Of a stretch of DNA of 4,609 nucleotides, positions 1 to 4,609 are shown one piece after another. The stretch is from a virus (lineage: Duplodnaviria; Heunggongvirae; Uroviricota; Caudoviricetes). Both the position numbers and the translations under genes were made by a program. The number at the start of each line of letters is the position of its first letter. Within the stretch, counting starts at the first letter, position 1. Below the pieces are notes generated by a model. It searched no databases. It was not told where the DNA came from and saw only the letters and a program-made list of their open reading frames with translations. The stretch is taken from the IMG/VR virus record IMGVR_UViG_2534681705_000011; one strand, written 5' to 3'.

Positions 1-43
1 GACGGAGGTCGCTGTCTTCACAGCTTACGAACCTGAGGAGTAA
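1..43 (+). CDS. hokD: Hok/Gef-family type I toxin, 3' end only (HokD/RelF-like); gene starts upstream of the window
   Basis: Positions 2-43 translate to TEVAVFTAYEPEE followed by TAA at 41-43. This matches the C-terminus of HokD/RelF as I recall it (memory, not a database hit). A structured 3' region and intrinsic terminator follow. Confidence 0.6.
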   Translation, partial: TEVAVFTAYEPEE

Positions 44-111: not shown

Positions 112-138
112 AACCCGCTTCGGCGGGTTTTGTTTTTT
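112..138 (+). terminator. Rho-independent terminator ending the upstream hok-containing transcript
   Basis: Stem AACCCGC (112-118), loop TTCG, stem GCGGGTT (123-129), then the T-rich run TTTGTTTTTT through about 138. Confidence 0.7.
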
Positions 139-210
139 CTGAGCATCCTGGTTTACAATCCACATGCCAGCCTGAACAACTGGCACCTGCTGCGCCAGCA
201 GAGAAAACAG

Positions 211-484: not shown

Positions 485-1534
485 GTGCGGGTATTACTTC
501 GACCTGTTCTGGTGCCGGAACTTGGGGTGGTTATCGTTAAGCCTGGTCGTGAATCCATGCAGGTATTCCATAACGGCAGAGTGCTGGTTGAACCGGAGCC
601 AAAAAGCATGCGCGGTCTGCCGTCCGGGGTCGTTCCTGCCGTTCGCCAGCCGCTGGCGGAAGACAAATCTCTGCTGCCATTTTTCAGCGATGAGCGGGTG
701 ATTCGTGCTGCCGGCGGCGCTGGTGCACTGTCTGACTGGCTCCTGCGTCATGTTAAATCCTGCCAGTGGCCTCATGGTGACTACCATCACAGTGAAACCG
801 TCATACATCGTTACGGTACCGGCGCGATGGTGCTGTGCTGGCACTGCGACAACCAGCTGCGTGACCAGACATCCGAATCACTCGGGCAACTTGCTCATCA
901 AAACCTGTCAGCATGGATGATTGACGTCATACGCCATGCAGTGAATGGCACGCAGGAGCGGGAATTATCGCTGGCTGAATTATCCTGGTGGGCGGTCCGC
1001 AATCAGGTGGCGGACGCGCTTCCGGAGGCAGTATTACGTCGTTCTCTGGGGTTACGTGCGGAAAAAATCCGCTCTGTGTACCGTGAAAGCGACATCATAC
1101 CGGGAGAGCAGACAGCCACCAGCATACTGAAGCAGCGCACAAAAAATATTGTGCTACCGCCTCACGCCCACCAGCAACAGAACCCACCACAGGAAAAGAC
1201 GGTGGTCAGCATTGCCGTAGATCCGGAGTCTCCGGAATCTTTCATGAAACGACCTAAACGTCGCCGTTGGATAAATGAGAAATACACACGCTGGGTAAAG
1301 ACACAGCCGTGTGCATGTTGTGGTAAGCCAGCCGACGATCCCCATCACCTGATTGGTCACGGTCAGGGAGGGATAGGAACAAAAGCCCACGATATTTTCA
1401 CGCTACCGCTGTGTCGGGAGCATCACAACGAGCTTCATGCGGATCCGCTGGCGTTTGAAGAAAAATATGGTTCCCAGATTGATTTAATTTTTCGTTTTCT
1501 TGATCACGCCTTTGCAACCGGCGTGCTCGGGTAA
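485..1534 (+). CDS. ydfU: DUF968-family protein (YdfU-like) with C-terminal HNH-like Cys/His motif; putative structure-specific nuclease in the NinG position
   Basis: 349-aa ORF with GTG start at 485 preceded by GGAGG (475-479). The C-terminus carries CACCGK...DDPHHL...CREHHNELH, a CxxC...HH...C-x2-HH-N-x2-H pattern. Its length and position directly upstream of rusA/Q match YdfU of the Qin prophage as I recall it. Confidence 0.8.
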   Translation: MRVLLRPVLVPELGVVIVKPGRESMQVFHNGRVLVEPEPKSMRGLPSGVVPAVRQPLAEDKSLLPFFSDERVIRAAGGAGALSDWLLRHVKSCQWPHGDYHHSETVIHRYGTGAMVLCWHCDNQLRDQTSESLGQLAHQNLSAWMIDVIRHAVNGTQERELSLAELSWWAVRNQVADALPEAVLRRSLGLRAEKIRSVYRESDIIPGEQTATSILKQRTKNIVLPPHAHQQQNPPQEKTVVSIAVDPESPESFMKRPKRRRWINEKYTRWVKTQPCACCGKPADDPHHLIGHGQGGIGTKAHDIFTLPLCREHHNELHADPLAFEEKYGSQIDLIFRFLDHAFATGVLG

Positions 1535-1546
1535 AAGAGGTTACTG

Positions 1547-1918
1547 ATGCGTATAGAGTTTGTTTTGCCTTACCCGCCGACGGTGAACACCTACTGGCGA
1601 CGCCGTGGCAGCACATATTTTATCTCAGAGGAGGGAAAGCGTTATCGCCGGGATGTGGCGCTCATTGTTCGCCAGCAGCGACTGAAATTAAATCTGTCCG
1701 GAAGGCTGGCGATCAGGATTATTGTGGAGCCACCGGATAAGCGCCGTCGTGACCTGGACAATATCCTGAAAGCGCCACTGGATGCACTGACACATGCGGG
1801 ACTGCTTATCGACGACGAGCAGTTTGATGAAATTAATATTGTGCGCAGTCAGCTTGTACCTGGTGGTCGGCTGGGCGTGAAGATTTACGAAATTACAGGT
1901 GGTAACGATGGCACGTGA
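1547..1918 (+). CDS. rusA: Crossover junction endodeoxyribonuclease RusA (Holliday junction resolvase)
   Basis: 123 aa with ATG at 1547 preceded by AAGAGG (1535-1540). The RRRDLDN and LIDDEQ motifs (catalytic acidic residues) and GGRL are clearly RusA-like. It lies in the canonical position upstream of Q. Confidence 0.93.
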
Positions 1919-2273
1919 TATTCAGATGGTTCTTGAGCGTTGGGGAGCGTGGGTGGCAAATAATCATGAGGATGTCACATGGCCATCGATTGCTGCTGGC
2001 TTTAAAGGATTAATACCGTCGAAAGTTAAATCGCGTCCGCAATGTTCCGACGATGACGCAATGATCATTTGTGGCTGTATGGCCCGGTTGAATAAGAACA
2101 ACAAAGAATTACACGATTTGCTGGTAGATTATTACGTGGCGGGCATGACGTTTATGGCGCTAGCACGAAAGCATGGTCGTTCGGATTGCTGGGTTGGCCG
2201 TTTGTTGCAAAAGGCTGAAGGGATAGTTGACGGCATGTTGATGATGCTTGATATCAAGCTGGACATGGACTGA
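1908..2273 (+). CDS. quuD: Late-gene antitermination protein Q (short QuuD / phage-82-like family)
   Basis: ATG at 1908 preceded by AGGTGG (1897-1902), overlapping the rusA stop (TGA 1916-1918). The 121-aa product matches the short Q family by length and position, and the sequence ([23 protein letters not shown]..., [16 protein letters not shown]) agrees with QuuD as I recall it. The ORF track's GTG at 1899 is an alternative start. Confidence 0.85.
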
Positions 2274-2317: not shown

Positions 2318-2797
2318 TTAAATGTTTTTATAATAACTCGCTTTTTCGTTAAAATTATTTTTGTTTTCTCTGGATGGAGAACTTACGTAGTTTTCCCATG
2401 CGCTATACGTTTTGATTAATGCTTCTCGCTCTGTAGGTGATTTTGTGTTTGCCTTGAGTTTTTCAAATGGTTCTTTTGCTGCATTTAAAACGATCATCAT
2501 TTGCTCGATGTCGCAGTCAGCGATTGCTTTTGATATATCGGGATCCCAGCCAACTCTCACTAACATATCTTGCTTGCTGGAAGTAATAAATTGTGTAGTG
2601 TTGATTATCATTTCTCCCTTATATAGAAGCTTTAAAAAATTATTTTTGTTAACTTGCTGGGGCGTGTTGTCCAAGGTGATATTTTCGCATTTCTTTAAAT
2701 ACGCATAATGATCACTATTTCTGTTTTCTGCGGAAGATTGAGCCGTACACCCTGTAATGATCAATGTACTTAATAATGTCAATGCTATTTTTTTCAT
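2318..2797 (-). CDS. Lipoprotein of unknown function, encoded by an AT-rich insertion (moron)
   Basis: 159 aa. The N-terminus MKKIALTLLSTLIITGC is a signal peptide with a lipobox (ITGC), and the residue after Cys is Thr, not Asp. The gene and its upstream region are visibly AT-rich (2341-2400 is about one-third G+C by hand count) against GC-richer flanks. It converges on Q. Confidence 0.8.
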   Translation of the reverse strand: MKKIALTLLSTLIITGCTAQSSAENRNSDHYAYLKKCENITLDNTPQQVNKNNFLKLLYKGEMIINTTQFITSSKQDMLVRVGWDPDISKAIADCDIEQMMIVLNAAKEPFEKLKANTKSPTEREALIKTYSAWENYVSSPSRENKNNFNEKASYYKNI

Positions 2798-2873: not shown

Positions 2874-2901
2874 TTTACAATCGTAAAAAATCAAATATGC
2901 T
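2874..2901 (+). promoter_or_regulatory. Candidate sigma-70 promoter, possible late (PR'-like) promoter relocated downstream of the insertion
   Basis: TTTACA (2874-2879), 16-nt spacer, TATGCT (2896-2901). The hairpin plus T-run at 2933-2955 lies about 30-50 nt downstream of the predicted start, the promoter-then-terminator arrangement used by Q antiterminators. By eye only. Confidence 0.3.
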
Positions 2902-2932
2902 GTTAAGAGTGGTTACTTCGCCACACAGCTTA

Positions 2933-2955
2933 AACCCGCCGCCAGGCGGTTTTTT
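2933..2955 (+). terminator. Intrinsic terminator-like hairpin with T6 run (candidate tR'-like terminator)
   Basis: CCGCC (2936-2940) pairs with GGCGG (2945-2949) around a GCCA loop; flanking A:T pairs are possible; TTTTTT follows at 2950-2955. No + strand gene ends just upstream. Confidence 0.5.
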
Positions 2956-3078
2956 GTGTCCGAAAAACGGCGCAGTACGTTAAACGTGCTGGTGGTTGCG
3001 AATACCGGTCTTTCAGCTTGCTGGCTTTTTCGACAAGAGTTATTGGTATGTCACGTTAACCAGAAAAGGGAAAAAGAC

Positions 3079-3273
3079 ATGCTAAAACAGCAGGATATGA
3101 CCGAAACTGCCAGAGTGGTATTTAATGAATTAAGCGTCACCGAACCGGCGACCGTCGGGGAGATTGCGCAGAATACTTACCTTTCACGCGAACGCTGCCA
3201 GTTAATACTGACCCAGCTTGTTATGGCGGGTCTGGCAGATTATCAGTTCGGTTGTTACAGACGTCTTCCGTAG
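3079..3273 (+). CDS. Small winged-helix DNA-binding protein (PapI/FaeA-like)
   Basis: 64 aa from ATG at 3079, preceded by AAGGG (3066-3070). The segment VVFNELSVTEPATVGEIAQNTYLSRERCQLILTQLVMAGLA follows the PapI/FaeA winged-helix pattern (T-x-E-I-A ... S-x-x-x-x-R ... L-x-x-x-G). The longer ORF-track version (GTG at 2956) has an implausible N-terminal extension crossing the terminator. Confidence 0.6.
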   Translation: MLKQQDMTETARVVFNELSVTEPATVGEIAQNTYLSRERCQLILTQLVMAGLADYQFGCYRRLP

Positions 3274-3426
3274 TGAAGGCTTTTTAATTTGTGGTAATGG
3301 GCGGCTGGTGGGTGTTAGCGGCACCTGCCAGCCATCTGCTCATGCGTTGTGGTCACAAGCAAACCTCAGGCCCATCTGCTTTGCGCAAAAGCGGTATGAG
3401 CCTATCAGAGAAGTGCTTATTGATCT

Positions 3427-4038
3427 ATGGCTAATACTGTAAAAATATCCAGTTGTGAGTTAATCAACGCTGATTGCCTGGAATTTATCCAGACCTTACC
3501 GGAAAATTCTGTCGATCTGATAGTCACAGACCCGCCATACTTTAAAGTGAAGCCCGAGGGCTGGGATAACCAGTGGAAGGGCGACGATGATTACCTGAAA
3601 TGGCTGGACCGGTGTCTGGCGCAGTTCTGGCGGGTACTGAAGCCCGCAGGAAGTCTTTACCTGTTCTGTGGTCATCGCCTGGCATCTGATATCGAAATCA
3701 TGATGCGTGAACGCTTTAATGTGCTGAACCACATTATCTGGGCGAAGCCGTCCGGACGCTGGAACGGATGCAATAAGGAAAGCCTGCGGGCGTATTTCCC
3801 GGCAACAGAACGCATTCTGTTTGCAGAACATTATCAGGGGCCATACCAGCCCAAAAATGACGGCTATGCGGCAAAGGGGTGCGAGCTAAAACAGCACGTC
3901 ATGGCCCCGCTGATTTCTTACTTTCGTGATGCGCGTGAATCACTGGGAATAACGTCAAAACAGATAGCGGAAGCCACCGGAAAGAAAAACATGGCTTCTG
4001 GTTTGGACCAGTCAGTGGCAATTACCGAACGAGGGTGA
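3427..4038 (+). CDS. N6-adenine DNA methyltransferase (beta class), N-terminal part carrying motif IV DPPY; reading frame interrupted
   Basis: DPPY at residues 35-38 (nt 3529-3540) within DLIVTDPPYF, followed by an HTH-like segment LGITSKQIAEATG. The frame ends at TGA 4036-4038 while the rest of the enzyme continues in the +1 frame. Confidence 0.8.
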   Translation: MANTVKISSCELINADCLEFIQTLPENSVDLIVTDPPYFKVKPEGWDNQWKGDDDYLKWLDRCLAQFWRVLKPAGSLYLFCGHRLASDIEIMMRERFNVLNHIIWAKPSGRWNGCNKESLRAYFPATERILFAEHYQGPYQPKNDGYAAKGCELKQHVMAPLISYFRDARESLGITSKQIAEATGKKNMASGLDQSVAITERG

Positions 4039-4048
4039 TTACAACAAA

Positions 4049-4471
4049 TTGCAGGCGTTGTTTGCGCGTGTTGCGGCAGAAAAGCATCAGCGAGGGGAAC
4101 TGGAAAAGCCACACCACCAGCTGGTCAGCACATACAGTGAACTGAACCGGCAATATGCCAGCCTGCTGGAAGAGTACAAATCCCTGCGGCGTTATTTTTC
4201 CGTATCGGCTGCCGTTCCGTATACGGATGTCTGGACGCATAAATCCGTGCAGTTTTATCCGGGCAAACATCCCTGTGAAAAACCGGCAGATATGTTGCGG
4301 CAGATAATTGAGGCCAGCAGTCACCCTGGTGATTTGGTTGCGGATTTTTTTATGGGTTCAGGTTCAACGGTAAAAGCGGCGATGGCACTGGGGCGTTGTG
4401 CGATTGGTGTTGAGCTGGAGACCGGACGTTTTGAACAGACAGTCAGGGAAGTTCAGGATTTAATCGTTTGA
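4049..4471 (+). CDS. N6-adenine DNA methyltransferase, C-terminal part (AdoMet-binding motif I); continuation of the preceding ORF in the +1 frame
   Basis: Contains HPCEKP and DFFMGSGST (FxGxG-type motif I), as in beta-class MTases such as YhdJ (recalled). This frame is open from 3968 (after TAG 3965-3967). The ORF-track start at 4049 is TTG; the first in-frame ATG is far downstream. Confidence 0.75.
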   Translation: MQALFARVAAEKHQRGELEKPHHQLVSTYSELNRQYASLLEEYKSLRRYFSVSAAVPYTDVWTHKSVQFYPGKHPCEKPADMLRQIIEASSHPGDLVADFFMGSGSTVKAAMALGRCAIGVELETGRFEQTVREVQDLIV

Positions 4472-4482
4472 AACGGATGAGA

Positions 4483-4511
4483 TTGCAGAATTAATTACGC
4501 ACCATTATTAT
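4483..4511 (+). promoter_or_regulatory. Candidate sigma-70 promoter for the tRNA gene
   Basis: TTGCAG (4483-4488), 17-nt spacer, TATTAT (4506-4511), then the GC-rich discriminator CTGCTCCC immediately before the tRNA 5' end at 4521, typical of stable-RNA promoters. Confidence 0.4.
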
Positions 4512-4520
4512 TCTGCTCCC

Positions 4521-4596
4521 GGCCCTTTAGCTCAGTGGTGAGAGCGAGCGACTCATAATCGCCAGGTCGCTGGTTCAAATCCAGCAAGGGCCACCA
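4521..4596 (+). tRNA. ileZ: tRNA-Ile2 (anticodon CAU, lysidine-modified type; ileX/ileZ-like), CCA encoded
   Basis: Cloverleaf built by hand: acceptor GGCCCTT/AAGGGCC, D-arm GCTC...GAGC, anticodon loop CTCATAA (CAT at 4554-4556), T-arm GCTGG-TTCAAAT-CCAGC, discriminator A then CCA. Very close to E. coli ileX as recalled. tRNAscan would probably report it as Met/Ile(CAT). Confidence 0.88.
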
Positions 4597-4609
4597 TCAC
4601 ATACCGCCA

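Follow-up and report, generated by a model that had tools for sequence, protein, structure and literature searches.

The stretch of DNA analysed here (the window, 4609 bp) was matched by its exact proteins to a single record, and is the whole of contig APXP01000122.1 in the draft assembly GCA_000356425.2 of E. coli MP021561.3. In that record the two methyltransferase ORFs have the accessions ENB40778.1 and ENB40779.1 and the name 'DNA methylase family protein'. A sister isolate, MP021561_2, is listed in a Bangladeshi ETEC collection which was sequenced with Illumina HiSeq 100-bp reads and assembled with the Celera Assembler (PMC5469772), and isolate MP021561.3 was probably sequenced and assembled in the same way. 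We found that the contig holds the late-regulatory module of a lambdoid prophage (Table 1). An Rfam scan of the window returned nothing besides the tRNA, which is identical to the tRNA annotated ileZ (tRNA-Ile) in records of Stx2a phages.

Table 1. Features of the window, in the order in which they lie on the contig
Feature	Position	Strand	Remarks
hok-type gene, 3' end			first element on the contig
90-aa ORF			between the hok-type gene and DUF968/HNH
DUF968/HNH	485-1534		
RusA	1547-1918		
antiterminator Q gene	1908-2273	+	PF06530; upstream of the methyltransferase
lipobox protein	2318-2797	-	159 aa
sigma-70-like promoter (predicted)	2874-2901	+	TTTACA-16-TATGCT; consensus scan only
terminator (predicted)	2936-2959	+	GC hairpin 2936-2949 followed by TTTTTT, element to 2959; about 35 nt downstream of the promoter
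conserved small ORF	3079-3273	+	64 aa here, 65 aa in relatives; phrog_331; always precedes the methyltransferase
methyltransferase, N-terminal piece	3427-4038	+	ATG 3427, 203 codons, TGA 4036-4038; frame 1
methyltransferase, C-terminal part	3968-4471	+	frame 2 open stretch, after TAG 3965-3967; stop 4469-4471
lesion	3997-4007	+	net -5 nt against intact alleles
tRNA, CAT anticodon	4521-4596	+	after the methyltransferase, as in relatives; contig ends 13 nt further

The antiterminator Q is expected to be the regulator that would turn on the late operon containing the methyltransferase. The candidate promoter and terminator may represent the pR'/tR' late pair on which Q would act, and if they do the methyltransferase would belong to the late operon and would probably be expressed from it. 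Homology that is shared with Stx phages bearing other Q genes begins at about 2869-2952. The order of small ORF, methyltransferase, tRNAs and stx or lysis genes is also found in Stx2a, Stx2e and LT-II phages as well as in many E. coli prophages, and in relatives holin and lysis genes lie in the flank of the methyltransferase module.

An earlier note on this DNA had proposed that the two ORFs are one adenine methyltransferase with a +1 frame change between motifs IV and I, and the positions it gave for the frame 1 stop, the opening of frame 2 at 3968 and the AAAAA run, as well as the frames it gave for the motifs, were all correct. The N-terminal ORF carries motif IV (DPPY, 3529-3540) and is authentic over residues 1-191. 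When the N-terminal fragment was compared with 1.8 billion representatives it matched homologues only up to query residue ~191, and residues 192-203 (GLDQSVAITERG) are an out-of-frame tail. The authentic reading restarts in frame 2 at ACC 4007 (Thr196), and the first canonical start in that frame is TTG 4049, the codon of conserved Leu210, which opens an ORF at 4049-4471. This frame contains HPCEKP (4268-4285) and motif I, DFFMGSGST (4343-4369, with FMGSG at 4349-4363). The two ORFs overlap by 71 nt and are in different frames. Against the profile PF01555 (N6_N4_Mtase) the N-terminal ORF matched positions 1-105 of 221 with 64.8 bits and the C-terminal ORF positions 132-219 with 87.8 bits, both above the gathering cut-off of 26.7. 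Since these are non-overlapping, complementary parts of the profile, the two ORFs together make up one beta-class N6_N4 DNA methyltransferase. The motif order of IV (DPPY), TRD and I (FxGxG) is kept, with a helical insert between. As written the two halves are not on one polypeptide, and they come to be so only after 5 nt are restored.

In the intact homologues the gene is a single ORF, 348-352 codons long. The best 120 representatives of 90%-identity clusters, from Enterobacterales, are 310-386 aa long, nearly all of them 348-352 aa, and the whole repaired query is covered. In phages the homologue is in one piece in 99 of 101 records, the only split one being that of Vibrio phage VP585 (gp53/gp54). 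At 35-50% identity, distant homologues are for the most part 320-400 aa long and extend ~150 aa past the N-terminal match, and the shorter entries inspected in the N-fragment search were fragments or fusion chimeras. An apparent clustering of fusion breakpoints at residues 185-216 in the entries P0151-P0154 was put down to a ranking bias of the N-terminal query. Homologues do not naturally end near residue 203, as according to the earlier note they might if there were two genuine genes, and the reading as a single enzyme is upheld. [quoted passage not shown] Four nucleotides (CGCA, equivalently GCAC) are absent between T3997/C3998 and T3999, in codons 191-192, and one T is absent between G4006 and A4007, in codon 195, where it is the lone T in GGTACC. 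At this junction intact alleles read GCTTCGCACTGGTTTGGTACCAG and the window reads GCTTCTGGTTTGGACCAG. Five diverse intact alleles, which are 80-99% identical per 100-nt block, have ATGGC(T/G)TC(G/A)CACTGGTT(T/C)(G/A)GT(A/G)C(C/A)AGTCAGTGG where the window has ATGGCTTCTGGTTTGGACCAGTCAGTGG. The loss of 5 nt moves the reading from frame 1 to frame 2.

Four relatives that were found via their identical lipoprotein (L008-L011) carry a 349-codon gene and are 98.5-98.8% identical to the window over all 4609 nt, with exactly 2 gaps and 5 nt missing in total. The five-way alignment contains 49 window-private differences, and from 3612 to 4609 the only ones are the five missing bases. Six complete genomes are identical to the window over 3960-4060 except for the 5 nt, and global alignment with RM11911 (92.5% identity over 4.3 kb) revealed no further indel. 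Because the relatives are otherwise identical around the junction, the ancestral sequence is known exactly, and since no other change private to the window occurs within the 1 kb that surrounds and follows the lesion, the lesion appears to be recent. We also considered long-term decay of the gene and rejected it. Further private non-synonymous changes would have pointed to a real but older pseudogene; the candidates R152C, P275S and R301H are not private to the window, since the intact relatives L008-L011 have them in common with it.

The earlier note had pointed to short homopolymers near the break. The AAAAA run (3985-3989) is indeed there, but the missing bases lie outside AAAAA, TTT (4002-4004) and GGG, all of which are unchanged in intact alleles. 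Around codons 191-198 there is an inverted repeat of 6 bp, ACTGGT-N5-ACCAGT, with a CAGTCAGT duplication behind it. We considered a hairpin at the lesion as a mechanism and discarded it, since its predicted fold is no more stable than those of shuffled sequence (z = -1.0).

Searches for the broken allele pointed to a single contig. The exact 36-nt junction had no match in GTDB representative genomes, and in the 364 complete-genome records matched by the junction probe every match shows the 5-nt gap. By exact-protein look-up the 203-aa and 140-aa products were found on this one contig only, and the repaired methyltransferase protein was absent from the collection. Apart from the methyltransferase pieces, four gene products of the contig are singleton alleles as well, and the same look-ups found this for DUF968, RusA and orf93.

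The repaired protein of 349 aa is identical to M.EcoGII at 306 of 350 positions (87%); the M.EcoGII sequence comes from a supplement that was read by machine (PMC11551740) and contains a few misread letters, so that the true identity is probably slightly higher. It is also 98% identical to an intact allele (P0301) that was seen on 176 contigs. M.EcoGII, a beta-class enzyme encoded by a prophage, methylates adenine whatever the surrounding sequence; it is silent in lysogens, and its over-expression is harmful (PMC5778455; PMC7544214). The identity to M.EcoGII strongly suggests that the intact form of the gene in the window would be a non-specific m6A methyltransferase.

Residues S191, H192, W193, F194, Q198, W199, D206 and Y207 do not vary among 114 aligned representatives. 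With the 4-nt loss His192 is gone and W193-G195 are out of frame, so the invariant SHWF block is destroyed by the lesion and nothing from H192 onward is present in the N-terminal product. An AF2 model of a close intact homologue has its N-terminal strands at 4-107, its C-terminal strands at 305-330 and a central helical insert between the two (helices 147-255); residue 192 lies in a short helix of this insert. This model is of moderate confidence (mean pLDDT 66.7, with a good core and poor loops) and was used only to place the break. The N-terminal product has the catalytic DPPY half without the AdoMet-binding FxGxG half, and the reverse is true of the product that would restart at TTG 4049. 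Neither of these products would hold the invariant block.

We therefore have one gene whose frame is broken by the loss of 4 + 1 nt and not by homopolymer slippage, and either an ordinary private lesion or an assembly error would leave it in this state. In both cases the feature is not programmed. The reading that we prefer, to which we give about an even chance, is that the loss is real in the DNA of the strain and is a very recent, strain-private, non-programmed inactivating mutation. The loss of the 5 bases, probably in one complex deletion event that took 4 nt from codons 191-192 and 1 nt from codon 195, would have broken the frame in the central helical (target-recognition) region. Translation from ATG 3427 would then yield the 203-aa product, with the remaining 140-167 codons stranded in frame 2. 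The methyltransferase would be dead, and phage released from this prophage would be without the promiscuous methylation of adenines by which its DNA is protected from restriction. We infer that the strain's DNA itself carries the lesion and that it is not confined to the assembly, and in favor of this 4-nt deletions in non-repetitive sequence are rare with Illumina and the contig is otherwise free of indels. Against a real event, two deletions 8 nt apart in a perfect 1-kb match suit a local consensus glitch at least equally well, and the allele is a singleton on a short contig within a multi-copy module. The further proposal that the lesion is real and non-neutral is improbable; here loss of the methyltransferase, which is toxic when expressed, would have been selected in the lysogen, or codons 191-198 would be a recurrent mutational weak point, or both.

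The main competitor, which we rate a little below an even chance, is that the strain has an intact 349-codon gene and that the 5 bases were lost when reads from at least two paralogous prophages were collapsed into one short contig by the overlap-consensus assembler. Genomes may contain up to 5 copies of the methyltransferase gene and up to 8 of the DUF968-RusA segment, and the contig is 4.6 kb long and bounded by repeated elements (the hok region and the tRNA). The occurrence of neither the broken nor the repaired protein elsewhere in the collection, the singleton alleles of DUF968, RusA and orf93, and two indels 8 nt apart with nothing else private for 1 kb all fit such a collapse. Moreover, five other draft contigs stop at nt 569 of the gene, 2 nt before the lesion; a long conserved stretch gives way there to its first polymorphic site, which makes the position a branch point between paralogous copies. 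The window-private substitutions are patchy and partly match the allele of another prophage. However, natural lambdoid recombination also yields patchy mosaicism, and the patch at 1205-1665 has a pattern compatible with natural mosaicism or a mixed consensus alike. A mixed consensus should also leave chimeric substitutions beside the lesion, and none were seen from 3612 to 4609. The rarity of 4-nt deletions in Illumina data counts against an artefact too, as does the lack of any other indel in the contig against relatives of 92-99% identity.

The earlier note had listed four causes, of which the true pseudogene and the sequencing or assembly indel survive; the other two, a split enzyme and a phase switch, are not supported. 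In a functional split enzyme the 203-aa product and a product restarting at TTG 4049, coupled to TGA 4036-4038, would associate into an active methyltransferase. TTG 4049 has a GAGGG 13 nt ahead of it and is 10 nt from the stop codon, beta-class enzymes work as dimers (PMC7544214), the Vibrio phage VP585 homologue is annotated as two genes, and half-length PHROGs families exist (phrog_6025 and phrog_6952). However, GAGGG and TTG are ordinary coding sequence (NEGDY and Leu210), and since the 160 nt after the lesion contain no window-private change against intact alleles, nothing appears to have evolved for a restart. Both products would also be without the invariant SHWF..SQW..LPNE.DY block (H192-W193-F194, Q198-W199 and D206-Y207), the seven-stranded core would be cut between its halves, and the close relatives are all single ORFs, the split being private to one contig. 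We regard a split enzyme as very unlikely. A phase-variable ON/OFF switch of the Mod phasevarion type, acting by reversible change of tract length, is even harder to credit. The short homopolymers A5 and TTT are nearby, and other alleles have lost 1 nt in an A4 run at codon 228. Yet Tandem Repeats Finder detected no tandem repeat in 3400-4500, the deleted CGCA and lone T are not in a repeat, and restoration of the frame would require two independent precise insertions. The variation in tract length across isolates that the earlier note had suggested comparing did not appear, as the A5 run does not differ in length among the six diverse alleles that were aligned; nor did any of the complete-genome records matched by the junction probe turn out to be a length variant like the window. 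Least credible of all, to the point of being nearly negligible, is a programmed ribosomal frameshift or a pair of truly separate genes conserved as such. The overlap of the ORFs in different frames would suit it, but the homologues are in one frame and need no frameshift, and neither the two-frame layout nor a slippery site was found in them. To make the authentic protein a ribosome would have to shift twice in the space of 10 nt, from frame 1 to 3 and on to 2, with His192 physically absent, and separate genes are at odds with the length of the distant homologues and their continuation past the N-terminal match.

We then looked at how the gene fares in other genomes, using 60 records evenly spaced from the 1915 complete-genome records that carry it. 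An intact-length match was present in 55 of the 60. Three are flagged 'frameshifted' by RefSeq: F3398 and NCCP 14541 share a change of A4 to A3 at codon 228, and in OkiPb01681 codon 198 has gained a T (+T). The other two are truncated fusion remnants. The RefSeq flags in the sampled genomes indicate that disrupted copies of this gene are a known and routinely flagged occurrence, and they offer a precedent for a real lesion in the window. The independent +T allele of OkiPb01681 falls within the same stretch of codons 191-198 as the lesion in the window.

The gene family is already known and characterised, and neither outcome alters what is known of it. What changes is mainly the annotation, as ENB40778.1 and ENB40779.1 are two pieces of one disrupted M.EcoGII-type gene and not two enzymes. 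If the lesion is real, as we prefer, the released phage would lose the blanket adenine methylation that is thought to shield its DNA from restriction, a small and strain-specific effect. If it is an artefact, the contig would be an example of the false pseudogenes that arise from collapsed prophage paralogues in short-read drafts.

Several known systems can be set beside the window. The resemblance to Mod phasevarions and to natural two-subunit methyltransferases is superficial, consisting of an interrupted or divided methyltransferase ORF; unlike those, the window has no simple-sequence tract and no res partner, and its split is not conserved. The solved beta-class enzymes M.RsrI (1eg2), M.MboIIA (1g60), CcrM (6pbd) and M.HpyAVI/DpnA (5hfj) match the protein of the window by sequence in both halves, with E-values of 1e-14 to 1e-24. 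In contrast to the repaired protein's presumed activity these enzymes are sequence-specific, and their central region is not alignable with the window protein. The RefSeq 'frameshifted' pseudogenes of F3398, NCCP 14541 and OkiPb01681 are the same gene, also located before an ileZ-type tRNA and also with small central indels; theirs are single 1-nt indels at codons 228 and 198, whereas in the window codons 191-195 have lost 4 nt and 1 nt in two deletions. Closest is the intact allele P0301 (UPI0002C9B648, for example in E. coli MP020940.1 and in L008-L011), which belongs to the same prophage module, has the 5 nt and is a single 349-aa ORF seen on 176 contigs, while the broken allele of the window was seen on one only. 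The characterised counterpart is M.EcoGII, together with M.EcoGI, of E. coli O104:H4 C227-11, a non-specific N6-adenine DNA/RNA methyltransferase with a prophage location (Murray et al. 2018, PMC5778455). Unlike M.EcoGII, the allele in the window is out of frame after residue 191 and has no complete catalytic core as written. Once repaired, its protein is like M.EcoGII a prophage-borne, beta-class enzyme of 349 aa, and both have an N-terminal DPPY, a central TRD and a C-terminal FxGxG.

The intact methyltransferase sequence at the lesion (window 3998-4012) contains a 6-bp inverted repeat, ACTGGT-TTGGT-ACCAGT, with the window's two deletions lying on its two sides. In intact homologues this repeat is followed by a duplication of CAGTCAGT. 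When the folding of the DNA was predicted, we found that a hairpin at the inverted repeat was no more stable than shuffled sequence.

Five draft contigs (that of L021 and four similar contigs) stop at nt 569 of the methyltransferase gene (...AAAAACATGGC); the lesion of the window lies two bases further on. Since nt 569 is the first polymorphic site past a long conserved stretch, this position is likely an assembly-graph branch point.

Further frame-disrupted alleles of the same methyltransferase were found in complete E. coli genomes (loci L018, L019 and L020). In both F3398 and NCCP 14541, GGAAAGCC replaces GGAAAAGCC at codon 228. The OkiPb01681 allele carries an extra T within CCAGTCAGTGG at codon 198, which places this insertion a few codons away from the lesion of the window.

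Private substitutions, those found only in the window in alignment to its relatives, are grouped in patches at 1219-1651, 3477 and 3607-3611. We found that 1219-1612 mostly carries the allele of the ESC818 strain and that 1622-1637 had no match among the loci compared. The top complete-genome match to 1205-1665 was just 96.5%. The DUF968, RusA and orf93 proteins of the window are singletons; Q, orf90 and the lipoprotein are each present on 200 or more contigs. The patches stem from lambdoid mosaicism of natural origin or else from a mixed consensus. Private substitutions also affect a conserved small ORF before the methyltransferase gene, where changes at 3264, 3271 and 3272 create a TAG at 3271-3273, so that the ORF encodes 64 aa in the window rather than the 65 aa of its relatives. 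One more lies at 3280, just past the stop of this ORF.

At the left end, the 5' boundary of the window falls within a hok-family toxin gene, and relatives have a HOK_GEF gene at the same place. The coordinates of this and other features are collected in the table.

Features at the left end of the window and downstream of Q
Feature	Position	Strand	Description
hok-family toxin gene, 3' part	1-43		last codons ..TEVAVFTAYEPEE and stop, ending at 43
Hairpin and T-run terminator	~113-140		downstream of the hok-family gene end, within 1-146
159-aa ORF	2318-2797	minus	signal peptide and lipobox-like LIITGC; phrog_8179
Promoter-like site and hairpin	2874-2959		TTTACA-16-TATGCT, then GC hairpin and TTTTTT ~35 nt downstream

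The 159-aa ORF has Q on one side and the late promoter-like site on the other, which is a moron-like position. A Pfam search with this ORF returned no match, and the index of the collection lists the identical protein in 380 blocks. Judged by its sequence, the promoter-like site with its hairpin and T-run looks like a pR'/tR' pair that would yield a short leader transcript. Homology common to the window and phages with other Q genes begins near this site.

In the representative library, four proteins (P0151-P0154) join the methyltransferase N-terminus to unrelated phage sequences, with tails that include Rz-like and NlpC/P60-like ones. These are probably the products of prophage deletions with an endpoint inside the methyltransferase gene. 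PHROGs keeps N-half and C-half "DNA methyltransferase" families apart (phrog_6025 and phrog_6952, meeting near residues 170-204), and one phage record, that of Vibrio phage VP585, annotates the homologue as gp53 and gp54. Thus split annotations of this methyltransferase family exist, but they are rare.
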